DNA of 64,000 nt from Pristiophorus japonicus (Eukaryota), in NCBI RefSeq assembly GCF_044704955.1, contig NC_091997.1:66092001-66156000 (forward strand). The letters are read 5' to 3'. Positions 6,871 through 56,342 of the stretch are shown here, in pieces. The notes below the pieces were generated by a model. The model was not told where the DNA came from. It did no database searches and worked only from the letters and a program-made list of their open reading frames with translations. How positions within the stretch are numbered: position 1 is the first letter of the stretch; every line of letters starts with the position of its first letter. A program made the translations under genes and the position numbers.

Positions 6871-7022
6871 TAGTATTTGATTGTGACCTCAAAAATATTT
6901 CTCTGAAGAACTGAGGTCCAATGTTGGTGGCCTTTATTGTGAATTATTGTAGTCATGGTCAGTGCAGCTGAAAATAAAAGCCATTGAGTTGGAGAATGTA
7001 ATACAGGCCAAGAGTAAACACT

Positions 7023-7735
7023 GACAGACTGGGGTCCTAGAGTAATCACCGACAGACTGGGGTCCTTGAGTAATCACCGACAGACTGGGGTCCTAGAGTA
7101 ATCACTGACAGACTGGGGTCCTAGAGTAATCACTGACAGACTGGGGTGCTAGAGTAATCACCAACAGACTGGGGTCCTAGAGTAATCACCGACAGACCGG
7201 GGTCCTAAAGTAATCACTGACAGACTGGGGTGCTAGAGTAATCACCAACATACTGGGGTCCTAGAGTAATCACCGACAGACTGGGGTCCTAGAGTAATCA
7301 CCGACAGACTGGGGTCCTAGAGTAATCACTGAGACTGGGGTCAAAGAGTAATCACTGACAGACTGGGGTCCTAGAGTAATCACCAACAGACTGGGGTCCT
7401 AGAGTAATCACCGACAGACCGGGGTCCTAGAGTAATCACCGACAGACTGGGGTCCTAGAGTAATCACCGACAGACTGGGGTCCTAGAGTAATCACCGACA
7501 GACTGGGGTCCTAGAGTAATCACTGACAGACTGGGGTCCTAGAGTAATCACTGAGACTGGGGTCAAAGAGTAATCACTGACAGACTGGGGTCCTAGAGTG
7601 ATCACCGACAGACTGGGGTCCTAGAGTAATCACTGACAGACTGGGGTCCTAGAGTGATCACTGACAGACTGGGGTCCTAGAGTAATCACCGACAGACTGG
7701 GGTCCTAGAGTAATCACTGACAGACTGGGGTCAAA
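7023..7735. repeat. 28-bp minisatellite, ~25 copies (GACAGACTGGGGTCCTAGAGTAATCACY)
   Basis: Direct tandem repetition with period 28 (e.g. 7023, 7051). Confidence 0.95.
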
Positions 7736-8019: not shown

Positions 8020-8525
8020 CTTTCTTGAGTCAGAAAATTGAGAGTTAAAGTCCCACTCTAGAGACTTGAGCACAATAATCTAGGTTGACACTCCCAAAGC
8101 AAGTACTGAGGGAGTGCTGCACTGTCGGAGGGGTAGTCCTGAGGAAGTGCTGCACTGTCAGAGGGGCAGTACTGAGGGAGCGCTGCACTGTCAGAGGTGT
8201 CATCTTTCAGATGAAACGTTAAACCGAGGCCCCGTCTGCTCTCTCAGGTGGACGTAAAAGATCCCACAGCACTATTTCAAAGAAGAGTAGGAGAGTTCTC
8301 CCCGGTGTCCTGGGGCTAATATTTATCCCTCAGTCACCATCACTAAAACAGATTATCTGGTCATTATCACATTGCTGTTTGTGGGAGCTTGCTGTACGCA
8401 AACTGGCTGCCACGTTTCCTACATTCTAACAGTGACTACACTCCAAAAATTACCTTATTGACTGTAAAAGCAGTTTGGGACACCCGGTGGTTGTGAATGG
8501 CACTATATAAATACAAGTCTTTCTT
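8020..8525 (+). mobile_element. Deu-domain SINE with 3 internal copies of the 33-bp unit
   Basis: Same core as other SINE copies; triplicated GTACTGAGGGAGYGCTGCACTGTCRGAGGGG at ~8102-8200. Confidence 0.8.
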
Positions 8526-10464: not shown

Positions 10465-10978
10465 AGGCTTGCGTTTGTTTATAGAGCACCTTTCACAGCC
10501 TCAGGATGACCCAAAGTGCTTTACAGCCAATGAAGTATTTTTGGAAGTGTAGTCACTGTTGTAATGTGGGAAACGCGGCAGACAAATTGCGCACAGCAAG
10601 CTCCCACAAACAGCAATGTGATAATGACCAGATAATCTATTTCTGTGATGTTGATTGAGGGATAAATATTGGTCCCAGGACACTGGGGAGAACTCCGCAG
10701 GATCCTTTACGCCCACCTGAGGGGGCAGACGGGCCTCGGTTTAACATCTCATCCGAAAGATGGTACCTCCGACAGTGCAGCACTCCCCCAGTACTGCCCC
10801 TCCGACAGTGCAGCGCTCCCTCAGCACTGCCCCTCCGACAGTGCAGCACTCCCTCAGTACTGCCCCTCCGACAGTGCGGCGCTCCCTCAGCACTGCCCCT
10901 CCGACAGTGCCGCCCTCCCTCAGCACTGCCCCTCTGATAGTGCCGCCCTCCCTCAGCACTGGCCCTCCGACAGTGCAA
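10465..10978 (-). mobile_element. Headless Deu-domain SINE whose 5' part is ~6 tandem 33-bp units (10788-10978)
   Basis: Reverse complement of SINE core and tail; tandem CCCTCCGACAGTGCRGCRCTCCCTCAGYACTGC. Confidence 0.85.
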
Positions 10979-11439: not shown

Positions 11440-11870
11440 AGCAGCGGGAGATTGGGAGGCAGAGACCCGGGAGGTGGGGGTGGGGGAGAGGGAAGGGAGC
11501 TGGGAACAGGCATTGTAAAAGAGGCAGTATTGTGATATATTCCCCCCGGAGCTGCTGTTGCGGCTCTCTCCTCGCCTCCCCCCCGGGGCCAAGTTGTCTC
11601 TGTGTCCCCCAGGGTGACTCCGCTGGTTTGGGCCGCTCGGGCGGACAGGAGCCCGGGGTCGGTGCTGAGAGCCGCAGCTCGGGGCCGGGCGGGCCAGGGA
11701 GCGAGAACAGGAGTTAGACAGGAGGGGGAATTTTTTAAAAAAGTATTTGAAGTTCGACATTTAAAGTTTGAAAAGTTCCAAAAACTCCACTGACCTGCGT
11801 ACAACGCACCCGGAAGCCGGGAAGAGATTCTGCGAAGTGGCTCCGGAGCCGCCTGCTGGCCGCAGAGACA
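11440..11870 (-). promoter_or_regulatory. CpG-rich promoter with short non-coding first exon (~11795-11826), probably for CIB1
   Basis: Unique GC/CpG-rich segment; ETS-type CCGGAAG; minus strand reads CTCTTCCCGGCTTCCGGGTGCGTTGTACGCAG|GTCAGT (donor); the CIB1 ATG exon has an acceptor and needs an upstream exon. Confidence 0.6.
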
Positions 11871-12540
11871 CTGTCGGAGGGGCAGTACTGAGGGAGCGCC
11901 GCACTGTCGGAGGGGCAGTACTGAAGGAGCGCCGCACTGTCGGAGGGGCAGTACTGAGGGAGCGCCGCACTGTCGGAGGGGCAGTGCTGAGGGAGCGCCG
12001 CACTGTCAGAGGGGCAGTACTGAGGGAGCGCCGCACTGTCGGAGGGGCAGTACTGAGGGAGCGCCGCACTGTCGGAGGGGCAGTACTGAGGGAGCGCCGC
12101 ACTGTCGGAGGGGCAGTACTGAGGGAGCGCCGCACTGTCGGAGGGGCAGTACTGAGGGAGTGCCGCACTGTCGGAGGGGGCAGTACTGAGGGAGCGCCGC
12201 ACTGTCGGAGGGGCAGTACTGAGGGAGTGCCGCACTGTCGGAGGGGCATTGCTGAGGGAGTGCCGCACTGTCGGAGGGGGCAGTACTGAGGGAGCGCCGC
12301 ACTGTCGGAGGGGCAGTACTGGGGAGTGCCGCACTGTCGGAGGGGCATTGCTGAGGGAGTGCCACACTGTCAGAGGGGGCAGTACTGAGGGAGCACCGCA
12401 CTGTCGGAGGGTCAGTGCTGAGGGACGCCGCACTGTCGGAGGGGCAGTACTGAGGGAGCACCGCACTGTCGGAGGGGCAGTGCTGAGGGAGCACCGCACT
12501 GTCGGAGGGGCAGTGCTGAGGGAGTGCCGCACTGTCGGAG
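11868..12540 (+). repeat. ~20 copies of SINE-derived 33-bp unit (CTGTCGGAGGGGCAGTACTGAGGGAGCGCCGCA), continuing into the SINE body to ~13105
   Basis: Period 33 (11871, 11904); followed by Deu core, which is interrupted by an RTE-like fragment at ~12751-13000. Confidence 0.92.
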
Positions 12541-18890: not shown

Positions 18891-21800
18891 CATAATGCGC
18901 AACAAAAATATATTCCAGTGAAAAAGAAGGGCGGCAAGAAAAGAGATAACCAGCCGTGGATAACCAAGGAAATAAAGGAAAGTATCAAATCAAAGACCAA
19001 TGCGTATAAGGTGGCCAAGGTTAGTGGGAAACTAGAGGATTGGGAACATTTTAAGCAACAGCAAAGAATGACTAAAAAAGCAATAAAGGGAAGATAGATT
19101 ACGAAGGTAAACTTGCGCAAAACATAAAAACAGATAGTAAAAGCTTTTACAGATATATAAAACGGAAAAGAGTGACTAAAGTAAATGTTGGTCCCTTAGA
19201 AGATGAAAAGGGGGATTTAATAATGGGAAATGTGGAGATGGCTGAGACCTTAAACAATTATTTTGCTTCGGTCTTCACAGTGGAAGACACAAAAACCATG
19301 CCAAAAATTGCTGGTCATAGGAATGTGGGAAGAGAGGACCTTGAGATGATCACTATCACTAGGGAGGTAGTGCTGGACAGACTAATGGGACTGAAGGTAG
19401 ACAAGTCCCCTGGTCCTAATGAAATGCATCCCAGGGTATTAAAAGAGATGGCGGAAGTTATAGCAGATGCATTTGTTATAATCTACCAAAATTCTCTGGA
19501 CTCTGGGGAGGTACCAGCGGATTGGAGAGCAGCTAATGTAACGCCTCTGTTTAAAAAAGGGGGCACGCAAAAGGCAGGTAACTATAGGCCGGTTAGTTTA
19601 ACATCTGTAGTGGGGTAAATGCTTGAAACTATCATTAAGGAAGAAATAGCGGGACATCTGGATAGGAATAGTGCAATCAAGCAGATGCAGCATGGATTCA
19701 TGAAAGGGAAATCATGTTTAACTAACTTACTGGAATTCTTTGAGGATATAACGAGCATGGTGGATAGAGGTGTACCGATGGATGTGGTGTATTTAATTTC
19801 CAAAAGGCATTCGATAAGGTGCCACACAAAAGGTTACTGCAGAAGATAAAGGTACGCGGAGTCAGAGAAAATGTATTAGCATGGATAGAGAATTGGCTGG
19901 CGAACAGAAAGCAGAGAGTCGGGATAAATGGGTCCTTTTCCGGTTGGAAATCAGTGGTTAGTGGTGTGCCACAGGGATCAGTACTGGGACCACAACTGTT
20001 TACAATATACATAGATGACCTAGAAGAGGGGACAGAGTGTAGTGCAACAAAATTTGCAGATGACACTAAGATTAGTGGGAAAGCGGGTTGTGTAGAGGAC
20101 TCAGAGATGCTGCAAGGAGATTTGGATAGGTTAAGCGAATGGGCTAAGATTTGGCAGATGGAATACAATGTCGGAAAGTGTGAGGTCATCCACCTTGGGA
20201 AAAAAAACAGTAAAAGGGAATATTATTTGAATGGGGAGAAATTACAACATGCTGAGGTGCAGAGGGACCTGAGGGTCCTTGTGCATGAAACTCTTTTAGG
20301 AGTAAACAAAAAACATTAAACCGTGCCCCCCCGATCTGGGGGAAACACCAACATTTACAAGGCCCTTTTTTTTATTTTTGGGGGTTTTTTTGGGGCACAG
20401 AATCAAATTTTTTTCCAAGTGCCCCCTATAAAAGGGGAGGGGGACACTAAAAGCACCGGCAATTAAAACAAATTAACTTAAAAAACATAAAATCAAATTA
20501 AAATTTGGTTGCCAGGCGTGATGATGCACTCCAGTCCCTCCGGTGCCCACCTCTCGCGGAAGGCCGCGAGCGTACCGGTGGACACCGCGTGCTCCATCTC
20601 CAAGGACACCCTGGACCGGATGTAAGAGCGGAAGAGAGGCAGGCAGTCAGGTTGAACGACCCCCTCGACCGCCCGCTGCCTGGACCGGCTGATGGCACCC
20701 TTGGCCGTGCCCAGGAGCAGTCCTACGAGGAGGCCCTCGGACCTACCCGCTCCCCTCCGCACAGGGTGCCCAAAGATCAGGAGTGTGGGACTGAAGTGCA
20801 GCCAAAATTTCAGGAGCAGCCCCTTTAAATAACAGAACAGGAGCTGTCCTTGTGCATGAAACTCTTTTTGGAGTTTATCTGCAAAACAAAAACATTAATC
20901 GGTGCCACCCGACCTGGATGACACACCAGACATTTACAAGGCCCTCTTTTTTTGTTTTTTTGGGTTTTTTTTTTGTGTTTTTCTTTTTTTTTGGGCACTA
21001 AAATCACCTTTTTTCCCCAGTGCCCCCTATAAAAGGGAAGGTCCTTGTGCATGAAACTCTTTTTGGAGTTCACCTGCAAAACATAAAACATTAAACGGTG
21101 CCACCCGACCTGGGTGACACTCCAGACATTTACAAGGCCCTTTTTTTCCCCCCCTTTTTTTTTTGTTTTTTTTTTGTTTTTCTTTTTTTGTTTTTTTTTG
21201 GGCACTAAAATCACAATTTTCCCCAGTGCCCCCTATAAAAGGGAAGGTCCTTGTGCATGAAACTCTTTTTGGAGTTCACCTGCAAAACATGAAACATTAA
21301 ACGGTGCCACCCGACCTGGGTGACACTCCAGACATTTACAAGGCCCTTTTTTTTTTTCCCCCCCCTTTTTTTTTGTTTTTTTTTGTGTTTTTCTTTTTTT
21401 GTTTTTTTTTTTGGGCACTAAAATCACAATTTTCCCCAGTGCCCCCTATAAAAGGGAAGGGGGACACTAAAAGCACCGGCAATTAAAACAAATTAAACTT
21501 TAAAACGTAAAATCAAATTAAAATTTGGTTGCCGGGCGTGATGATGCACTCCAGTCCCTCCGGTGCCCACCTCTCGCGGAAGGCCGCGAGCGTACCGGTG
21601 GACACCGCGTGCTCCATCTCCAAGGACACCCTGGACCGGATGTAAGAGCGGAAGAGAGGCAGGCAGTCAGGTTGAACGACCGCCCGCTGCCTGGACCGGC
21701 TGATGGCACCCTTGGCCGTGCCCAGGAGCAGTCCTACGAGGAGGTCCTCGGACCTACCCGCTCCCCTCCGCACAGGGTGCCCAAAGATCAGGAGAGTGGG

Positions 21801-22742
21801 ACTGAAGTGCAGCCAGAATTTCAGGAGCAGCCCCTTCAAATAATGGAACAGGGGCTGCAACCTTGTGCATGAAACTCTTTTTGGAGTTTATCTGCAAAAC
21901 AAAAACATTAATCGGTGCCACCCGACCTGGATGACACACCAGACATTTACAAGGCCCTCTTTTTTTGTTTTTTTTGGGGGGTTTTTTGTGTTTTTCTTTT
22001 TTTTTGGGCACTGAAATCACCTTTTTTCCCCAGTGCCCCCTATAAAAGGGAAGGTCCTTGTGCATGAAACTCTTTTTGGAGTTCACCTGCAAAACATAAA
22101 ACATTAAACGGTGCCACCCGACCTGGGTGACACTCCAGACATTTACAAGGCCCTTTTTTTCCCCCCCTTTTTTTTTTGTGTTTTTCTTTTTTTGGTTTTT
22201 TTTTGGGCACTAAAATCACAATTTTCCCCAGTGCCCCCTATAAAAGGGAAGGTCCTTGTGCATGAAACTCTTTTTGGAGTTCACCTGCAAAACATAAAAC
22301 ATTAAACGGTGCCACCCGACCTGGGTGACACTCCAGACATTTACAAGGCCCTTTTTTTCCCCCCCTTTTTTTTTTGTGTTTTTCTTTTTTTTTTGTTTTT
22401 TTTTGGGCACTAAAATCACAATTTTTCCCCAGTGCCCCCTATAAAAGGGAAGGTCCTTGTGCATGAAACCCAAAAGGTTAGTTTGCAGGTGCAGCAGGTA
22501 ATCAGGAAGGCAAATGGAATGTTGGCCTTCATTGCGAAAGGGATGGAGTACAAAAGCAGGGAGGTGTTGCTGCAACTGTATAAGGTATTGGTAAGGCCGC
22601 ACCTGGAGTACTGCGTGCAGTTTTGGTCACCTTACTTAAGGAAGGATATACTAGCTTTGGAAGGGGTACAGAGACGATTCACTAGGCTGATTCGAGAAAT
22701 GAGGGGGTTACCTTATGATGATAGATTGGGTAGACTGGGTCT
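18891..22742 (+). mobile_element. CR1 ORF2 segment interrupted at RDLRVLVHET by the Tx1-like array; lacks its own 3' end
   Basis: ORFs 19172-19618, 19819-20319 ([16 protein letters not shown]) and 22432-22746 are colinear CR1 RT; the sequence resumes exactly at 22470 (CCAAAAGG). Confidence 0.92.
20292..22454 (-). mobile_element. Tandem array of seven 5'-truncated Tx1-clade non-LTR retrotransposon 3' ends
   Basis: Two long units encode an ORF2 C-terminus (LLKFWLHFSPTLLIFGHPV..LLLGTAKGAI..FRSYIRSRVSLE..FRERWAP) resembling Tx1-clade ORF2; five short ~180-bp units; all separated by the duplicated target CCTTGTGCATGAAAC. Confidence 0.85.
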
Positions 22743-22995
22743 TTAATTCCCTGTTTTCTCTCTCTCTCTCTCTCCTTTTTTAAAAAGTGGTGTTACATTA
22801 GCTTCCCTCCAGACGGTAGGAACTGATCCAGAGTCAATAGAATGTTGGAAAATGATCACTAATGCATCCACTATTTCTAGGGCCACTTCCTTAAGTACTC
22901 TGGGATGCAGCCTATCAGGCCGTGGGGATTTATCGGCCTTCAATCCCATCAATTTCCCTAACACAATTTCCTGACTAATAAGGATTTCATTCAGT
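22743..22995 (-). mobile_element. CR1 ORF2 fragment, probably the upstream part of the minus-strand element ending at 18890
   Basis: LKADKSPRPDRLHPRVLKE..WREANVTPLFKKG. Confidence 0.8.
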
Positions 22996-23930
22996 AATGT
23001 GGTGACCAGAACTGCAAGCAGTACTTTAGCTGCGACCTAACTAGTGTTTTATACAGTTCAAGCATAACCTCCCTGCTCTTATATTCTATGCCTCGGCTAA
23101 TAAAGGCAAGTATTCCATTTGCCCTCTGAACCACCTTATCTACCTGGCCTGCTACCTTCAGGGATCTATGGACCTGTACTTTCCAACTTCAAGATGCCAT
23201 GGCCAATTGTGACACCCTCACCACCATGACTGGCACCCGCTAATTCAGTTCAGAGTGGGACTTGGGCAATTAACCTAAGTGCAACATTTACCCACAAGAT
23301 GTGTCTAAATAATTTAAGTAAATGGCACAGCTCAATTCTTGAGCTTAAGTTTCAAGTTCAAAACATTTAAACTAAAGATAACCGTAGACCATGTCCACAC
23401 GAGTGTTCACCCTGTATATCGCTACTTTTACAACAGGGAGTTTTGCACATCTGTGGAGTGAGAAACAGAGTTAACGTTTCGGGTCTGTTTCTCTCTCCAC
23501 AGATGCTGAGTGTTTCCAGCATTTTCTGTTTTCATTTCAGGATTTCCAGCATCCAGCAGTATTTTGTTTTAATGTTAAAGTCGACATTCTGGTTACCACC
23601 TGCATGTCCAGTGGTCGTCAGACCAGCATCTCTCCGAGATCAATGAAAACTCAGACAAAGGAGGAGGTGACATAACAGTCACACTGCGTCTAATTGCAAC
23701 ACCACGTTTATGATTGGTCCCCTTGGAGGATAAGACACACCCAACAGTTTGTCTGGAATGTGTAATATGATCCAGTCTACAGAATGTGGAAGTCTAGTTA
23801 GCTTTGTGAAGATCCTCTCTTAATAGTATTCTGCAAATGTAGTTATAGGTATCCTTGCCTGGTAAAATAAAAGAAGTGATACTCTAATGAATAATTCTTT
23901 GGCGTTTTATGGGTTTTTCTCCTTCAGCAT

Positions 23931-32159: not shown

Positions 32160-33462
32160 CAGAGTCAGCATGGATTTATGAAGGGGAAATCATGTTTGAC
32201 AAATTTGCTGGAATTCTTTGAGGATGTAACGAACAGGGTGGATAAAGGGCAACCAGTGGATGTGGTGTATTTGGACTTCCAGTAGGCATTTGACAAGGTG
32301 CCACATAAAAGGTTACTGCACAAGATATAAGTTCACTCGGTTGGGGGTAATATATTAGCATGAATAGAGGATTGTCTAACTAACAGAGAACAGAGAGTCG
32401 GGATAAATGATTCATTCTCTGGTTGGCAACCAGTAACTAGTGGGATGCTGCAGGAATCAGTGCTGGGACCCCAACTATTTACAATCTATATTAACGACTT
32501 GGAAGAAGGGACTGAGTGTAACGTAGCCAAGTTTGCTGATGATACAAAGATGGGAGGAAAAGCAATGCATGAGGAGGACACAAAAAATCTGCAAAAGGAC
32601 ATAGACAGGCTAAGTGAGTGGGCAAAAATTTGGCAGATGGAGTATAATGTTGGAAAGTGTGAGGTCATGCACTTTGGCAAAAAAAATCAAAGAGAAAGTT
32701 ATTATTTAAATGGAGAAAGATTGCAAATTGCTGCAGTACAGCGGGACCTGGGTGTATTTGTGCATGAAACACAAAAGGTTAGTATGCAGGTACAGCAAGT
32801 GATCAGGAAGGCCAATGGAATCTTGGCCTTTATTGCAAAGGGAATTGAGTATAAAAGCAGGGAAGTCTTGCTGCAGTTGTATAGGGTATTGGTGAGGCCA
32901 CACCTGGAATACCGCGTGCAGTTTTGGTTTCCATATTTACAAAAGGATATACTTGCTTTGGAGGCAGTTCAGAGAAGGTTTACTGGGTTGATTCCGGAGA
33001 TGAGGGGGTTGACTTATGAGGAAAGGCTGAGTAGGTTGGGTCTCTACTCTTTGGAATTCAGAAGAATGAGAGGTGACCTTATCGAAACGTATAAGTTATG
33101 AGGGGGCTTGACAAGGTGGATGCAGAGATGATGTTTCCACTGATGGGGGAGACTAGAACTAGAGGGCATAATCTTAGAATAAGGGGCCGCCCATTTAAAA
33201 CTGAGATGAGGAGAAATTTCTTCTCTCAGAGAGTTGTGGATCTGTGGAATTCGCTGCGTCAGAGAGCTGTGGAAGCCGGGACATTGAATAAATTTAAGAC
33301 AGAAATAGACAGTTTATTAAACGATAAGGGGTTATGGGGAGCGGGCAGGGAAGTGAACCTGAGTCCATGATCGGATCAGTAATGATCATATTAAATGGCG
33401 GAGCAGGCTCAAGGGGCCGTATGGCCTACTCCTGCTCCTATTTCTTATGTTCTTATGTTCTT
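32160..33462 (+). mobile_element. CR1 3' portion carrying an unoccupied homologue of the Tx1 target site (32751-32780)
   Basis: ORF 32445-33101 with RDLGVFVHETQKVS uninterrupted; (TTCTTATG)n tail. Confidence 0.9.
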
Positions 33463-34004: not shown

Positions 34005-34790
34005 ACCCGTATCTCTTGGCCACTCCCTCACACTGACCAGTGTATCTCCCGATCACTCCCTCACTCTGACCGGTGTATCTCCTGGTCACTCCCTCACACT
34101 GACCGGTGTATCTCCCGATCACTCCCTCACACTGACCGGTGTATCTCCCGATCACTCCCTCACACTGACCGGTGTATCTCTCGGTCACTCCCTCACACTG
34201 ACCGGTGTATCTCCCGGTCACTCCCTCACACTGAACGGTGTATCTCCCAATCACTCCCTCACACTGACCGGTGTATCTCTCGGTCACTCCCTCACACTGA
34301 CCGGTGTATCTCCCGATCACTCCCTCACACTGACCGGTGTATCTCCCGATCACTCCCTCACACTGACCGGTGTATCTCTCGGTCACTCCCTCACACTGAC
34401 CGGTGTATCTCTCGGTCACTCCCTCACACTGACCGGTGTATCTCCCGATCACTCCCTCACACTGACCGGTGTATCTCTCGGCCACTCCCTCACATTGACC
34501 GGTGTATCTCCCGATCACTCCCTCACACTGACCGGTGTATCTCCTGGTCACTCCCTCACTCTGACTGGTGTATCTCCTGGTCACTCCCTCACTCTAACCG
34601 GTGTATCTCTCGGTCACTCCCTCACACTGACCGGTGTATCTCCCGATCACTCCCTCACTCTGACCAGTGTATCTCTCGGTCACTCTCTCACACTGACCGG
34701 TGTATCTTTCGGTCACTCCCTCACACTGACCGGTGTATCTCTCGGCCACTCGCTCACACTGACCGGTGTATCTCTTGATCACTCCCTCAC
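34005..34790. repeat. 33-bp minisatellite, ~24 copies (CCGGTGTATCTCYCGRTCACTCCCTCACACTGA)
   Basis: Tandem repetition; produces spurious 11-aa repeat ORFs. Confidence 0.95.
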
Positions 34791-38449: not shown

Positions 38450-39395
38450 GTGAGTGGCCTTAGACTTGGCGATGAAATGTATGGTTGGATGGAGATAGGG
38501 CTCTGTGGTTGAGTAAAAAAGAACAGCGCCTCATCACAATTCTCAGGACACCCTAAAGCACTTCATAGACAATAAGCAATCGGAAGCGAGGTGACATATA
38601 TTATATAGGGGAGTGCACAGCAAGGTCCCACAAACAGCAATGAGGTGAATAACCAGTTAAACTGCGGTTCATCGGCATTTGTTCATGGAGCAATGTTCGC
38701 CAGCTGATTGGGAGAAGTTCCTGCTCTTAGCTGGTCATTTATAGTGTTGCTGTTTTTTGGGACGTTGCATTATATGGTTAGGGCATCTTGTGCATGGGTT
38801 GGAAAAGTAGATGGTTTCTCGTGATTGGTTAAGGGGGCAATTGGTAGCTAGTTGGAAAGGTAGGTTTAATTTGAATTGATACTTGGGTCTCCCAGTTATA
38901 GGACTTGCTAAATATAATCTTTAATCGTAATCTTTTGGGATTTTGAAGATGAAAGCTATATTCATTAATGTTAGTTAGATGTTTATAATATATTGGGCTT
39001 GACAGGGTAGATGCAGCGAGGATGTTTCCCCTGGCTGGGGAATCTAGAACCAGAGGTCACAGTCTCAGAATAAGGGGTCGGCCATTTAGGGCTGAGATGA
39101 GGAGAAATTTCTTCACTCAGAGGGTGGTGAATCTTTGGAATTCTCTGACCCAGAGGGCTGTGGAGGCTCAGTCTTTGAGTATATTCAAGGCTGAGAGCGC
39201 TAGATTTTTGGATATTAAGGCAATCGAGGGATATGGGGACAGTGCAGGAAAGTGGAGTTGAGGTAGAAGATCAGTCACGATCTTATTGAACGGCGGAGCA
39301 GGCTCGAGGGGCCGAATGGCCGACTCCTGCTCCTAATTCTTATGTTCTTATGTTTATCATGTGATCTTTAAACGTTCTGTTTGTATGCTGTACAG

Positions 39396-39552
39396 TTTTG
39401 GGGATTTTCAGGCCTACTGCAGGATGAAGAAGACCAAGACGTATATCTGTAAACCAGACTGTGGGTGTCAGGGCCGGGGGATTTTCATTACCAGGAACCT
39501 AAAGGAGATTAAACAAGGAGACCGCCTGATCTGCCAGCAGTACATCTCCAAG
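39396..39552 (+). CDS. TTLL13: TTLL13 exon (FGDFQ..YICKPDCGCQGRGIFIT..CQQYISK)
   Basis: ATP-grasp motif with Q at the elongase-type position (CQGRG); AG/GT bounded. Confidence 0.95.
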
Positions 39553-39869
39553 GTATTGCATAGTGTTTACAGCACCGAGACAGACCAACAGCAAGCAACC
39601 ATTTTGTTCACACTTGTCTCCCCTTCCTCACTTGAAGTGACAGAAGCAACTTCCAGCACCTTAACCCAGCCACCATTCTTTAAATGTGAGCTTGGACAGA
39701 GAAGGTTGGTGGGCTTGGCACCCAAGCCTAATCCTGTTCTGACCTCCAAACCACACCTACACTTTCCAGGAGGACTGAACGCGACTGTAGTATGTCTACG
39801 GCCACCTCAACTGCGATCCGCTAACTCCGCACAGACCAGGGAGCTGGCTCCTGCTCTGTATGGGCCAGC

Positions 39870-40190
39870 AACACACTGGGCAGTTCACTGAGCTGGGTCA
39901 ATAACACACTGAGCAGTTCATTGAGCCGGGTCTGTAACACACTGGGCAGTTCATTGAGCCGGGTCTGTAACACACTGGGCAGTTCATTGAGCCGGGTCTG
40001 TAACACACTGGGCAGTTCATTGAGCCGGGTCTGTAACACACTGGGCAGTTCATTGAGCCGGGTCTGTAACACACTGGGCACTTCATTGAGCCGGGTCTGT
40101 AACACACTGGGCAGTTCATTGAGCCGGGTCTGTAACACACTGGGCAGTTCATTGAGCCGGGTCTGTAACACACTGGGCAGTTCATTGAAC
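39870..40190. repeat. 33-bp minisatellite, ~10 copies (ACACACTGGGCAGTTCATTGAGCCGGGTCTGTA)
   Basis: Near-perfect tandem repetition. Confidence 0.95.
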
Positions 40191-42980: not shown

Positions 42981-43927
42981 GTACAATGAACAGGAAACTC
43001 TCGCCCACATTCTTTCAGCACTTTCAGTATGCAGCAAATATATCATAAAGATCCAATCAATGTTGCCCTGAAGGCTGGTTAAGGTGGTGTGGGGCTGGGT
43101 CTGTCTCTAGATTGAAGCATGTAGGACCAATCATCATTGAGAGGCTGACTGGTTAGGTGGGAGTCCTCAGTCCTTAAACCCAAAGCTTTTGCGATTGGAA
43201 AGGAACCTTACTTTTTGTATAAGTCTGGTGCCATGGTCATCAGTTTCAGTTGGAATTTCCCCAAGACCCAAAGGCAGTCGTGCTGGTGAAGCAGCATGCC
43301 TCACTATCCCTGTCTGATGCCAGTCACTGTAGCCTCACCATCTTCAACTGGCTCTCAGCCACAGACAGGAACATCTCCTTGCCCAATTGCAAGGCCTTGA
43401 AAATATTCCTCAACAGACCCAGATGCTGCAGTGCTGATTTAGCCCATTATATTGCGATAGTAACAAAAATCGTGCAACAACAATTTGTATTTGCACAGCG
43501 CCTTTAAAGTAGTATAACGTCCCAAGGCGCTTCACAGGAGTATTATTAAACAACATTTGACACCGAGCCACATAAGAAGATACTGGGGACAGTTGACCAA
43601 AAGCTTGGTCAAAGCGACAGAAGTAGTGTCTTAAAGGAGGAGAGGTGGAGAGTTTTACCCCTTGATATCTGATATATTAGTTACATAAGAACATAAGAAA
43701 TAGGAGCAGGAGTCGGCCATATGGCCTCTCGAACTTGCTCCGCCATTCAATAAGATCAGGGCTGATCTGATCTTCGCCTCAACTCCACTTTCCCTCCCGC
43801 TCCCCATAACCCTTGACTCCCTTATCGTTCAAAAATCTGTCTATCGCCACGTTAAATGTAGTACAATGTCTATCTATTTATCCCTGTATTGTATTAGTCT
43901 ATTCATATTGTGTTCTGTCATGTACAG

Positions 43928-44153
43928 AAAACTGTCCTCACTTAACAGTTGGTTGGAGCAGCATGGGCACAATACAGCAAAGGTTTGGGCAGACATTGAA
44001 GACGTCATCATTAAAACTCTAGTTTCTGCCTATCCGATCTTAAAGCACAATTACCGGACTTGTTTCTCCAATCACCTCTTTGGCAGTGCCTGCTTTGAGA
44101 TACTGGGATTCGATATCCTGGTGGACCGCAATTTGAAACCATGGCTCCTGGAG
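43928..44153 (+). CDS. TTLL13: TTLL13 exon (KLSSLN..CFEILGFDILVDRNLKPWLLE)
   Basis: Catalytic-core motif, AG/GTGAGT bounded. Confidence 0.95.
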
Positions 44154-45394
44154 GTGAGTTAAACAACAAGCAAGGTGTGATGGTATCAAAAGACTGTTGG
44201 AAAAATACAGAGTGCAAGTTGAACTGCTCATAAAAGAAAAAACTTTCATTTATATAGCACCTAATCACACTCGCAGGATGTCCCAAAGCACTTCATAACC
44301 AATGAATTACTTTTCGAGCGTACTCACTGCTATTACATAAGCAAACACGACAACCAGTTTACACAGATTCCACAGACAGCAAATGACACAAGTGACCAGT
44401 TCATCTGTTTTTGGTGATATTGGTAAACTCCCTGGACTTTTTCCAATGACGGCACAGGATCTTTACCGTCCATTAGAACCTCCTTGTGGAACCTCAGCTT
44501 AATGTTTCATCTGAGGGCCAACTCCTCCGACAGTGCAGCACTCCCTCAGCACTGCACTGCAGGGGCAGTTTGGATTATGCGCTTAACTCTCTGGCGTGAG
44601 GCTTGACCCCCCCCCCCCCCCCGAATCTTCTGACTCCGAGGTGAGAGTGCTACCCACTGAGCCGCAGCTGAAATTTAAGGGATAGCTGGGGATCTGAGGG
44701 CCAGCGAGAGAGACATAGCCCTGATATTGTGATACTGTTTCATTTTTGTGCAGCAGAGATGCTGTCAAAGTAACCTTAGTGAGTTGCTGCTATGCATCCT
44801 TTCGGCAGCCATAATGTGCCGGTGGTGGAGGGGTGGAGATTGAACCTAGTGACAGGGGTGCAGAGGACCAAACTGCTCTGTCCTAGATGGTGTCGAGCTA
44901 CTTGAGTACTGCTGCGGCTTCACCCATCGAGGCCAGTGGCAAGTATTCTATCACACCCCTGATTTCAGCCTTGTAGATGGCGGAGGGGCTTTGAAGGGGT
45001 CAGGAGGTGAGCCACTCGCTGCAGAGTACCCTCCCTCTGTCCTGCTCTTGTAGTCCCATTCAGCTACTGACATCCATACACAGCAGAAGTCACGGGGTAG
45101 TGATCAGGAGCAAGAACCATGATTTATTTCCTTTGTAGCGTAGAAGCATTGAAGCCAATTGTAGTTATTCATTCACTGCCCTGGATGAGATCAGTTAATT
45201 TAGCACATGCCAAATATGAATCATGGTTTGTTTGTATAGCTTCATGTCACACCAGGCAGCCATTTCCCCACAGTGCAATACGGAGTCTCCTTGGCAAACA
45301 ATTATTCGACTAGAACTGTAGTTTTGTACAAATGTATTCAGTAACCATCAGCCTGTGTGTTTTGTGCCAACACACCCCACATTTTGCTTCCCAG

Positions 45395-51635: not shown

Positions 51636-54600
51636 TGTTACGTATGCAATAACTCAATAGGCTTAGTACCGTGAACTCAATCAGGTGCGACCTGACTCTA
51701 CTTTATTAGCTCTCAAAGTGAGGATTAAACATGGAGGCTTTCTTTATATACAAGGGCTGCACGTGTGTGTCTGTGGCCCAATGACCTCCGACGGTCGCTC
51801 CCCCTGGTGGCAGGTAAACCCAGGCATACATACATTACATCATTCCCCCCCCCCCCCCCCCCCCCCGAAGATCTTGGTATCAGTACTATTTACAAATTGA
51901 GACGGTCCGGGGTTTTCCACTCCCTAGTTGATCGTCTCAGTTCAATTCCAGATGTGAGTGAGCCTCTCCGAGTCATTCATGACTTGAGGCTGGGTAGCTG
52001 ATCTAATGGGAGTGGCAGTGTCCATGTCGGAGATTGAAGGTCCAGATTCATTTACAACAGCAGGGTCTTCTGATGGCTGAATATGAATCGGTTGGTCAGT
52101 GATGGTGTCTTCTTCAAGCTGTTTCGGTTCGTCTGTGTGCCGCAATTTCGTCCTGCATGTTTGCCCATTAGTGAGCCTTACAATAAGCACCCTGTTACCC
52201 TCTTGGCCGTAACAGTCCCAGTGACCCACTTGGGGCCGTGACCATAATTTATCACCTACACTGGATCGTTAATAGATATGTCGCGTGACACGGCAGTGCG
52301 ATCACTGCTGATGTTGACGTCTGTTTTCGATGTGATCATTAAGATCAGGGTGGACAAGCGAGAGCCTGGTCTTGAGACCTCTCTTCTTCAACAGTTCAGC
52401 AGGGGGGACCTCGGTAAGCATGTGGGGTCTTGTCCTGTAACTAAGCAGTATGCGTGACAAGCGAGTCTGCAAAGAACCGTGAGTTAACGCGTTTCAGGCT
52501 CTGTTTGATGGTTTGGATGGCCCGCTCCGCTTGACTATTGGACATGGGTTTGAATGATGCTGACCTTACGTGTTTGATACCATTAAGTCTCAAACTCTTG
52601 AAACTCCAAACTCGTGAAGCACGATCCGTTGTTGCTCACAACGATGTCTGGCAGACCATGAGTGGCGAACATGGCACGAAGGCTCTCAATGGTGGCTGTG
52701 GATGTGCTGGATGACATGATTACACAGTCGCTTGTCCACCCTGATCTTAATGATCACATCGAAAACAGACGTCAACATCAGCAGTGATCGCACTGCCGTG
52801 TCACGCGACATATCTATTAACGATCCAGTGTAGGTGCTAAATTATGGTCACGGCCCCAAGTGGGTCACTGGGACTGTTACGGCCAAGAGGGTAACAGGGT
52901 GCTTATTGTCAGGCTCACTAATGGGCAAACATGCAGGACGAAATTGCGGCACACAGACGAACCGAAACATTTTGCCCAGGAAAGGACCCGCATAATCGAT
53001 GTGGATCCTCGACCATGGTTTGGATGGCCACAACCACAGACTTAGCGGAGATTCCACTGGTGCATTGCTTAACTGCATGCAAATGTTGCACTGATGCACA
53101 CATGACTCCAAATCAGAGTCAATGCTAGGCCACCAAATGTGAGACCTGGCAATGGCCTTCATCATCACAATGCCGGGATGGGTACTGTGTAAATCCCGTA
53201 CAAATCTCTCCCTGCCTTTCTTGGGCATAACAACACGATTACCCCATAGCAAACAATCAGATTGAGTGGATAGTTCGTCTTTGCGACGATTGTAAGGTTT
53301 GATCTCATTACACACTTCCCTGGGAATGGCCGACCAATCACCACTAAGGACACAACATTTTACAACTGATAAGATCGCATCCTGGCTGGTCCAGGTCCTA
53401 ACTTGTTGAGCAGTGACAGGCGACCCTTCACTCTCAAAGGCATCCATGACCAACAGTAGGTCTGCGGGCTGTGGCGTTTCCACCTCCGGCATGGGCAACG
53501 GTAAACGGCTCAATGCATCCGCACAATTCTCGGTGCCGGGTCTATGGCAAATGACATAATCATAGGCAGATAATGTCAGCGCCCACCTCTGGATGCGGGA
53601 CGACGCCTTGGTATTGATATCTCTATGCTCTGAAAACAAAGATATGAGCAGCTTGTGATTGGTTTCAAGCTCTAAACGAAGCCCAAACAGGTACTGGTGC
53701 ATCTTTTTAACCCCATATACGCAGGCTAAAGCTTCTTTCTCTACCGTGCCGTAGGCTCTTTCCGCTTTAGACATGCTTCTCGACGCATTCGCAACGGGTT
53801 GTAGTTTGCCCGACTCATTGGATTGTTGGAGCACACAACCAACCCCATGTGATGAAGCATCACAGGCCAATACTAAACGCTTGCACGGGTCATAATGTAC
53901 CAGCAATTTGTTAGAACAAAGCAGATTTCTATCCTTCTCAAAGGCCCTGCCTTGAGATACACCCCAAACCCAGTTGTCGCCTTTTCTGAGCAGCATGTGC
54001 AGTGACTCTAAAAATGTGCTCAATTTAGGTAAGAAATTCCAAAGTAGTTGAGAAGACCAAGGAACGAACGCAGCTCAGTCCCATTCTGGGGTCTGGGTGC
54101 ATTTTTGATGGCCTCTGTTTTCGAATCCGTAGGCCTGATGCCGTCTGCAGCAATCTTCCTTCCCAGGAATTCGACTTCCAGTGCCATAAAGATGCACTTT
54201 GAACGTTTCAGCCTGAACCCCATTTTGTCCAGACGACGTAGAATCTCTTCCAGGTTGTGCAAGTGTTCGGCAGTGTCACGACCTGTGACCAGAATGTCGT
54301 CTTGGAACACCACGGTTCTAGGGACGGACTTCAGTAGACTCTCCATGTTTCTCTGAAATATGGCTGAAGCCGAGCGAATTCCGAAAGAACACCTGTTGTA
54401 AATGAACAGCCCTTTATGCATATTGATGCACGTAAGTTTCTTCGACAATTCAACAAGCTCCTGTGTCAAATAGACCGACGTCAGATCCAATTTGGTGAAC
54501 GACTTTCCCCCGGCTAGCGTTGCAAACAGGTCATCAGCCTTTGGTAATGGGTACTGAGCCTGTTTCAAAACTCGGTTGATCGTAACCTTGTAGTGTCCAC

Positions 54601-56342
54601 AAATCCTGACAGTGCCATCACTCTTCAGCACAGGAACAATGGGACTAGCCCATTCGACCGGTGAAATGACCCCTTCACGTTGGAATCTGTTCAGTTCGAT
54701 TTCTACCTTCTCCCTCATCATGTACGGGACTGCCCGGGCTTTGTGATGGACGAGCCTTGCATCCGAGTCCAGGTGGATCTCCCGTGAAGTTGCCATTGCC
54801 CGGATCAAACAGCGAGGGAAATTTGCTCAGCACTTGAGCTCACGAAGCGTCATCCACCAGTGACAAAGCTTTAATATCGTTCCAGTTCCACATTATTTTT
54901 TCGAGCCAACTCCTGCCGAACAGCGTTGGACCATTGCCTGGAACGATCCACCGCGATAGATCATGAACCACCCCATCATACGACACCTTGACTGCTGCAC
55001 TGCCAGTCACTGGTGTGAGCTCTTTGGTGTAGGTACGCAATTTTGCATTTACTGGACTCCGCTTGGCTTTCACGGCCTTGGTGTCCCACAGCTTTTCGAA
55101 AGTCCTCTGGCTCATAATTGACTGACTCGCACCCGTGTCTAATTCCATAGATACCGGCACACCGTTCAATTTTACTTCAATCATTATTGGTTGGCTCTTT
55201 GTCAGGAACGAATGTACACTATACATTTGCTCCTCGGGTACCTTGGGTTGCATTGCCGGATCCGCTCTGGATCGGTCATCATCATCCACGTGGTGTATCA
55301 CGGCATGCATGCTGAGTTGCGGACACATCCACAGAAGGTGCCCCATTTTCGCACAGCCTCTACAAATATACTGCCTGAAACGGCACTGATGAGGCCAATG
55401 ATTTCCCCCACAACGCCAACAGGGTGAAATCGGATTCGTGCCCAATGGCGGACTTCGAGTAGCTACAGGTTTCGCAAACACAGTCGGGTGCGCCCTGCCA
55501 GGTGCAGCTCTGCCAACCAACGACACAATCTGGTGCACAGTACTTGCCGTAGAGTTCCGACTCTGTGAGGATATCTGCTTTGTACCATCGATCGTGGTCT
55601 GGCAAGCCTGGGCGATCGTGATGGTCCTGCTCAGATCCAGCGTCTCCACAGCCAGCAGCTTCCGCAGGATCACCTCGTGGTTTATGCCTATTACAAAGAC
55701 GTCGCGCAGCATGTCTTCCAACGCGGTTCCAAACTTACACGGCCCAGCGAGACGTCTCAGGTCGACAACAAATTCCGCCACGTCCTGGCCCTCAGAATGA
55801 ACATGCTTGTAAAAGCGATATCTCGAGATAATGATACCTTTTTTAGGTTTGAGATGGTCCCGAATCAGAGCACACAATTCCTCATAGATCTTTTCCATTG
55901 GACGTGCAGGTGAGAGCAGATTCTTTATGAGGCCATAGATTTTTGGACCACAAACTGTGAGGAAAACTGCCCTGCGCCTAATTACTTCAGCGTCTTTATC
56001 CATCTTGTTGGCCACGGAGTACTGGTTGAGGCAATCTGTAAAATCCTCCCAGTCTTCTCCCTCCACGAATCGCTCCAGGATTCCAAAAGTGCTCATTTTT
56101 TGTGTGCGTGAAAGTTCGTATTGTCCCTCGTCGCCAAATGTTGCGTATGCAATAACTCAATAGGCTTAGTACCGTGAACTCAATCAGGCGCGACCTGACT
56201 CTACTTTATTAGTTCTCAAAGTGAAGATTAAACATGGAGGCTTTCTTTATATACAAGGGCTGCACGTGTGTGTCTGTGGCCCAATGACCTCCGACGGTCG
56301 CTCCCCCTGGTGGCAGGTAAACCCAGGCATACATACATTACA
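51636..56342 (-). mobile_element. Full-length decayed Gypsy/Ty3 (Mag-like) LTR retrotransposon, antisense in a TTLL13 intron
   Basis: 204-bp TG..CA LTRs (51636-51839, 56139-56342; 4 differences), TSD AGGCC/GGGCC, PBS TGGCGACGAGG (tRNA-Ser GCU), G-run PPT, gag with two zinc knuckles, protease LDTGAS, RT FQDD, RNase H DAS, integrase HHCC and HIDYAGP; frameshifted. Confidence 0.95.

Follow-up and report, generated by a model that had tools for sequence, protein, structure and literature searches.

Here, we found that a terminal hairpin is present in each of the seven units of a tandem array of Tx1-clade LINE 3′ ends, located within a 64-kb window of Pristiophorus japonicus DNA (the whole stretch that was analysed, 64,000 nucleotides). 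The hairpin occurs in three sequence variants, with variant A in one unit, variant B in two and variant C in four. The hairpin is real and probably maintained, while its conservation by compensatory changes was not demonstrated.

The array (20292-22454) consists of seven Tx1-clade 3′ ends arranged head to tail on the minus strand, and lies antisense within a host LINE (Table 1). The 15-nt core of the target-site duplication is found in eight copies, between and flanking the seven units, and seven of these copies reach 17 nt. In all seven units the 3′ junction is fixed, with the short A-rich end abutting the target duplication and no variable poly(A). Every Tx1 copy in the window is truncated at its 5′ side, inside the last 116-124 codons of ORF2, and no further copies of the array units were found in the rest of the 64-kb window.

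The original prediction had called the element Tx1-like, and the ORF2 homology bears this out. The ORF2 C-terminus shares 43% identity over 100 residues with the Xenopus Tx1 149 kDa protein (pairwise E 2e-18). The closest relative, P0001 (72%), is in turn 41% identical to Xenopus Tx1 over 99% of its length, and the same ORF was found in pieces within predicted proteins of Pristis and Pristiophorus (three of the seven matches), pointing to a cartilaginous fish as the probable source. Assignment of the array element to the Tx1 clade is thereby supported at the level of sequence homology. The array breaks the host LINE just downstream of its reverse-transcriptase domain. Its motifs make this host a presumed CR1-type LINE. 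The Tx1 insertion is antisense, at one conserved coding site of this presumed CR1-type LINE, with a 15-17 nt duplication (20277-22469), and three other copies of the host LINE region in the window (near 32760, 18300 and 26400) are all without insertion. A very high-copy Tx1 family with a coding target of CR1 type may be more notable than the hairpin at this locus.

Table 1. Positions of the array units, their terminal hairpins and the neighbouring features (coordinates of the window).
Feature	Position	Strand	Remarks
Left part of the host LINE, with the C-terminal part of the reverse transcriptase	19768..20291	+	Pfam RVT_1, E 2e-19
Target-site duplication core, first copy	20277..20291	+	Later copies start at 20848, 21043, 21249, 21861, 22056, 22254, 22455
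U1, 5′-truncated Tx1 copy	20292..20847	-	Variant A tail; ORF2 C-terminus at 20493-20847
U2, short unit	20863..21042	-	3′ UTR part only; variant B
U3, short unit	21058..21248	-	Variant C
U4, 5′-truncated Tx1 copy	21264..21860	-	Variant C tail; ORF2 C-terminus at 21513-21860, with 9-nt deletion
U5, short unit	21876..22055	-	Variant B; tail identical to that of U2
U6, short unit	22071..22253	-	Variant C; tail identical to that of U3
U7, short unit	22269..22454	-	Variant C; tail identical to those of U3 and U6
Host LINE right of the insertion	22470..22746	+	Frame resumes in register with the left part
Terminal hairpin, variant A (U1)	20323..20348	-	Arms of 11 and 10 nt; 6-nt loop predicted, or 5-nt loop plus bulge; 31 nt from 3′ end
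Terminal hairpin, variant B (U2)	20902..20924	-	Stem of 9 bp with two U-G pairs; 5-nt loop
Terminal hairpin, variant C (U3)	21098..21120	-	9 bp, 5-nt loop, one U-G pair
Terminal hairpin, variant C (U4)	21304..21326	-	
Terminal hairpin, variant B (U5)	21915..21937	-	
Terminal hairpin, variant C (U6)	22111..22133	-	
Terminal hairpin, variant C (U7)	22309..22331	-	
14-nt block just 5′ of the hairpin	20352..20365	-	Invariant in 7/7 units; also at 20931, 21127, 21333, 21944, 22140, 22338
Internal A-rich tract	21347..21412	-	About 75-85 nt upstream of 3′ end; 27-66 nt and 74-83% A across units
Upstream mutually exclusive stems H1 and H2	21413..21467	-	H1 21439-21467, H2 21413-21444; H1 of U1 at 20419-20447

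Read in the sense of the element, the 3′ UTR comprises a U-rich stretch, the H1/H2 region, the A-rich tract, the 14-nt block, the hairpin, a U-rich spacer and the short A-rich end. Conservation is higher in the 14-nt block and in the last 12 nt than in the hairpin. The arms of H1 resemble those of the terminal hairpin. In the H1/H2 region (21413-21467; 20393-20447) the predicted choice of stem differs between variants A and C, and in H2 a G-U to G-C change distinguishes U5 from U2. Possibly, the internal A-rich tract was once the poly(A) end of the element, and the terminal module came to lie behind it later, through transduction or duplication of the H1 module.

The hairpin sequences and coordinates quoted beforehand for variants A, B and C proved exact, and the distance between the hairpin and the 3′ terminus of its unit is 31, 39 and 40 nt in A, B and C, respectively, in line with the proposed distance of about 30-40 nt. 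Folding is better in element sense, with -14.9, -12.4 and -15.0 kcal/mol for A, B and C on the minus strand against -11.7, -3.8 and -10.5 kcal/mol on the plus strand, and all wobble pairs are G-U pairs on the element-sense strand. The proposed stem with a 5-nt loop was recovered in B and C (9 bp) but not in A, where the minimum-energy loop has 6 nt and three U-G pairs follow one another. The loop reads A-G-purine-U-C, in which the G at position 2 is constant and variation is confined to position 3.

With thresholds of 9 bp or more and -12.4 kcal/mol or lower, nine hairpins were found on both strands of the remaining window, which corresponds to about 0.6% per 80 nt. Windows of 33-36 nt gave local z values of -2.2 to -2.5, having been cut around the hairpin itself; compared with dinucleotide shuffles, the whole tails of 74-83 nt were unremarkable (z of +0.24 to -1.03). 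For variants B and C, the pair probabilities of the hairpin were 0.74-1.0 at all context lengths tried. The variant A hairpin is predicted to form in the last 83 nt only, since in the full UTR its pair probability is at most 0.28 and a motif further upstream takes over the pairing of its 3′ arm (0.99). In these models, a stable hairpin close to the element's 3′ end is robust in B and C, and in A it is restricted to short context. An Rfam scan of 19500-23000 returned seven matches up to E 5, none of them close to the gathering score.

The original prediction also described the stem as conserved by compensatory changes. This was overstated: one two-sided change does exist (A-U to C-G in variant A), but the covariation is not significant. 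In the alignment of the seven tails (four distinct rows), six of the nine stem pairs are invariant, one is changed on one side (C-G to U-G in variant B), one on both sides, and one is broken (G-C to U.C in variant A), the last of which did not appear in the earlier account. Variant A comes back to ten pairs through a 2-nt slip of its 5′ arm and a gained G. The covariation score of 0.167 for these tails was reached by 129 of 500 shuffles, and a control slid by +3 scored equally. A second pair flagged by RNAalifold as changed on both sides (columns 21/48) was not counted, being broken in A and located outside the stable stem. Furthermore, three random stem substitutions produce a two-sided change that keeps the pair in 7.6% of simulations, and both bases of the two-sided change in A extend C and G runs.

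The distribution of changes between variants is more informative. Relative to C, the 30 nt of the hairpin in A carry six substitutions and an indel, which is the highest number of substitutions of any 30-nt window; elsewhere, five substitutions were counted in two UTR windows and the ORF2 5′ edge, and mostly none or one per ORF2 window. The stability of A was nevertheless kept. When changes were placed at random, this outcome was seen in 0.9% of 1500 trials without matching and in 2.4% of 3000 trials matched for the type of change. The dense changes in A with retained stability are a better argument for constraint than the covariation. The change in variant B is uninformative, with 42.5% of controls performing equally or better. 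A functional hairpin is plausible. The read contigs on the array gave no phased tail variants; among the 40 of 90 rows listed for them there is no substitution inside the hairpin, which is not proof of absence.

In the past, hairpins at the 3′ end of stringent LINEs have become well known, as have Tx1 families that target transposons and form tandems around the duplication. In UnaL2, both loop and stem are required, and the protein is thought to read G2 of the GGAUA loop (PMC1636434). PMC4176376 likewise states that loop and stem of the ZfL2/UnaL2 3′ stem-loop are needed; the name "TX1" there denotes a mutant, unrelated to the Tx1 clade. With UnaL2 and ZfL2-1/ZfL2-2 (L2 clade) the present element shares a hairpin near the 3′ end, the absence of a terminal poly(A), a loop of 5 nt whose second base is G, and a stem whose sequence is more variable than its structure. 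In contrast to UnaL2/ZfL2-2-type hairpins, loop positions 1 and 5 differ (the loop starts with A and ends with C, and is not GGAUA), the 9-bp stem of B and C is perfect, lacking a bulge or U-U hinge, and a unique tail of 31-40 nt stands in place of short terminal (UGUAA) repeats. The elements belong to different clades and the analogy is distant.

PMC3472496, PMC3747384 and PMC5135761 describe stringent-LINE 3′ hairpins that include an L1-clade lineage with compensatory changes. In monocot L1-clade LINEs (LINE1-1_ZM group; Ohshima 2012), a 3′ hairpin with a variable stem is likewise accompanied by conserved flanking nucleotides; several compensatory changes and partner SINEs are reported there, whereas the present element shows one change among three variants. 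For human L1, L1 being the sister group of Tx1, PMC10830416 (Thawani 2023) shows that ORF2p cradles a stem upstream of the poly(A), from which a single strand leads to the priming site, and that disruption of the stem modestly lowers and scatters priming. A stem upstream of a single strand is thus common to both systems; human L1, however, needs a 3′ poly(A), while here the short A-rich end is fixed and an A-rich tract lies upstream of the hairpin. Crocodilian Tx1-Mar was proposed to mobilise the poly(A)-tailed SINEU, and no LINE sharing the SINEU-1 tail was found (PMC4494074). Therefore, stringency of Tx1 elements is not established.

Tx1 elements are a site-specific sister group of L1, and in the literature found it is unsettled whether they recognise their RNA by structure or by poly(A). 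A young family of very high copy number, without terminal poly(A) and with several tails on near-identical ORF2 ends, is a good test case for this question. Other Tx1 families also target transposons, i.e., Tx1L in Tx1D (Xenopus), Tx1-Mar in Mariner-N4_AMi, and Tx1-8_Crp/Tx1-4_AMi in LTR elements (crocodilians). As here, they use one repeat site, make a duplication of about 16 nt and form tandem copies sandwiching the duplication, with antisense orientation at one Mariner site; in contrast to the present case, the targets named for them do not include the coding region of a CR1-type LINE. A Tx1 family on a CR1-type LINE adds a target class. The literature search, with subscription papers, Repbase and the supplements of PMC4494074 outside its reach, found neither a 3′ hairpin in Tx1 elements nor CR1 as a Tx1 target described in any paper. 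The known principle is left unchanged by either the hairpin or the target class unless the guide-like pairing considered below is real.

The original prediction further interpreted the variants as separately evolving subfamilies that imply independent insertions. In support of this, the 5′ junctions of U1 (variant A) and U4 (variant C) differ; on the other hand, the five short units of B and C share one junction, and within ORF2, U1 and U4 carry the same allele at 12 of the 14 major polymorphic sites (hand-picked from the read table). The 5′ junctions of U1 and U4 are no more than 2-5 nt apart, 15 substitutions separate the two units along 402 upstream bases, and the A and C tails sit on near-identical ORF2 ends. 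The truncations of the long units, at 20847 and 21860, use different microhomologies, which suggests a truncation hotspot.

The five short units have one exact common 5′ junction, at a G-run microhomology. In run X1, the depth across this junction was 344-517 (several junction forms) compared with 121,004 in the duplication bin, next to which a bin of 318,753 was recorded; these depths are rough and come from 72% of the run. Truncation at such a rare point is unlikely to have occurred five times independently, and the array is best explained by a few true insertions that were followed by duplication and exchange at the locus. Copying a long unit together with B and C as one block is insufficient, as U1 and U4 differ in junction, tail and the upstream substitutions, and U2 and U5 are near-identical. 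As candidates for a partner SINE, the short units have one common 5′ end, but they start inside the UTR and lack a head, and the low junction depth in X1 disfavours a high-copy SINE made of them. The short-unit 5′ junctions (21042, 21248, 22055, 22253 and 22454) fall inside H1, and the plus strand of the junction end holds a TATAAAA motif, probably by chance.

Across the Tx1 family, independent insertion is evident. Run X1 yielded 40,398 contigs on the array; among the 12 of 28 joints listed (with inserted letters), seven run into the duplication at its start, and six of these seven depart from different positions in ORF2. Several upstream-UTR alleles of U1 occur in the wider family (21501 at 14% and 21507 at 8% of the X1 depth), where the U1 hairpin itself was unseen. 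Because these alleles recur, variant A is not merely a decayed copy. Runs X8 and X12 (organisms B and C, letters unrelated to the hairpin variants) gave three and one contigs on the array, respectively. At 21471-21842 each has one long contig of low depth that is nearly identical to the ORF2 end, with two differences plus the 9 nt absent from U4; close relatives, carry-over and transfer are all compatible with these contigs. The contigs of run X13 span ORF2 and the upstream UTR and do not reach the tail.

By analogy with known systems, the hairpin may be a cis element of this site-specific Tx1 LINE, located in its 3′ tail, conserved in structure and serving template capture or priming, and we give this reading about an even chance of being correct. 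It is modelled on the stem and single-stranded tail bound by human L1 ORF2p and on the L2-clade UnaL2/ZfL2 stem-loop. ORF2p would engage the stem, mainly by its shape and perhaps by reading the loop G at position 2. Such engagement would capture the RNA of the element itself and set the start of target-primed reverse transcription, with the single-stranded, U/A-rich 31-40 nt presumably running from the stem to the active site. The presence of the hairpin in every unit, its stability in B and C, its rarity by chance and its retention in A are consistent with this reading, as are the element-sense wobbles, the fixed 3′ junction without poly(A) and the loop G2 also found in UnaL2. The cradling of a stem upstream of a single-stranded template by an L1-clade ORF2p (PMC10830416) points the same way. 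Several observations nevertheless argue against it: covariation is not significant, the two-sided change lies in C/G runs and one pair is broken in A, whose hairpin is outcompeted in the full UTR; whole-tail z values are unremarkable, the hairpin does not keep a constant distance from the 3′ end (31 nt in A, 39-40 nt in B and C), and it is less conserved than the neighbouring 14-nt block. In addition, Tx1-Mar has been proposed to mobilise SINEU although no tail common to both was found (PMC4494074).

Alternatively, the proteins of the element may read the 14-nt block and the A-rich tract, the latter in a relaxed, L1-like manner, and read-through RNA may pair with the nicked target, in which case the hairpin would merely compact the tail or represent one state of a larger H1/H2 fold; we consider this rather unlikely. 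The stronger conservation of the 14-nt block and the last 12 nt fits this alternative, as do the A-rich tract found in all units, the different long-range fold predicted for variant A, and predicted folds with target read-through, in which the 14-nt block pairs with the duplicated target. L1 ORF2p, moreover, requires poly(A) and depends only modestly on the stem (PMC10830416). The A-rich tract is, however, impure, variable and about 80 nt from the priming site, and high stability is predicted for the hairpins of B and C whatever the context. Slippage in C/G runs and quasi-palindrome template switching in DNA can mimic compensation. The hairpin could accordingly be a by-product of a UTR built from repeated G/C-run motifs, formed by either process with no selection on RNA structure, which we judge unlikely. 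The sole two-sided change does fall in homopolymer runs with indels, the arm motifs recur upstream (in H1 and H2) and compete with the hairpin in A, and the non-significant covariation comes from three variants only, with B probably derived by few changes. Against such an origin, hairpins of this kind are rare in the remaining window and the type-matched control gave p of about 0.02. The wobbles favour the RNA-sense strand, while a cause at the DNA level would be strandless, although two to four independent wobbles are weak evidence; in A, both strands fold almost equally as DNA.

A further alternative assigns the hairpin to the extruded centre of a bipartite RNA guide, whose flanks would bridge the nick by base-pairing with the other strand of the target and so aid the choice of site. 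We regard this as very improbable, and no less so its extended form, in which the bipartite guide would complement the endonuclease and the tail as a whole would have been attached, as a module, after an older A-rich end. The blocks 20352-20365 and 21275-21290 were compared with the target at 20275-20289 and 22478-22491; they are collinear, with the hairpin between them. Across the duplication, the invariant left block and the plus strand of the target agree at 12 of 15 positions, a likeness equalled by 0.7% of background windows, and in variant C the spacer after the hairpin contains a 10-nt exact match just past the insertion point. For C, the two-block likeness was matched by 27 of 17,606 background windows, but for B and A the corresponding numbers rise to 309 (1.8%) and 963 (5.5%), the right block being altered in B and deleted in A, so that the likeness is strong for C only. 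Single-alignment scores were not significant (38% for A, 17% for B), and the blocks were chosen post hoc. A piece of the target captured by the element in the past would look just as similar and need have no function, and site specificity of Tx1L resides in the endonuclease alone according to PMC1950540.

Searches for relatives elsewhere yielded no candidates within their respective scopes. Protein-based locus scans of metagenome and viral contigs gave 584 and 413 pattern matches, respectively, among which no relative was confirmed. A DNA pattern neutral to the hairpin matched 14 metagenome, 3 genome and 0 viral sequences; none of the 17 aligned to the array, and these matches were ascribed to chance. 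The translated search with the tail read-through returned three unrelated repeat proteins and no candidate.

Apart from the array, the window contains an LTR-retrotransposon pol on the minus strand (52848-56156), distributed over three frames with protease, reverse transcriptase, RNase H and integrase zinc finger. Exons of a gene of the tubulin-tyrosine-ligase family lie on the plus strand at 39337-39891 and 43704-44162. Furthermore, minisatellites with a 33-nt period, and one with a 28-nt period, are located at 8102-8197, 10766-10977, 11869-12540, 34009-34790 and 39870-40188, and at 7011-7732.
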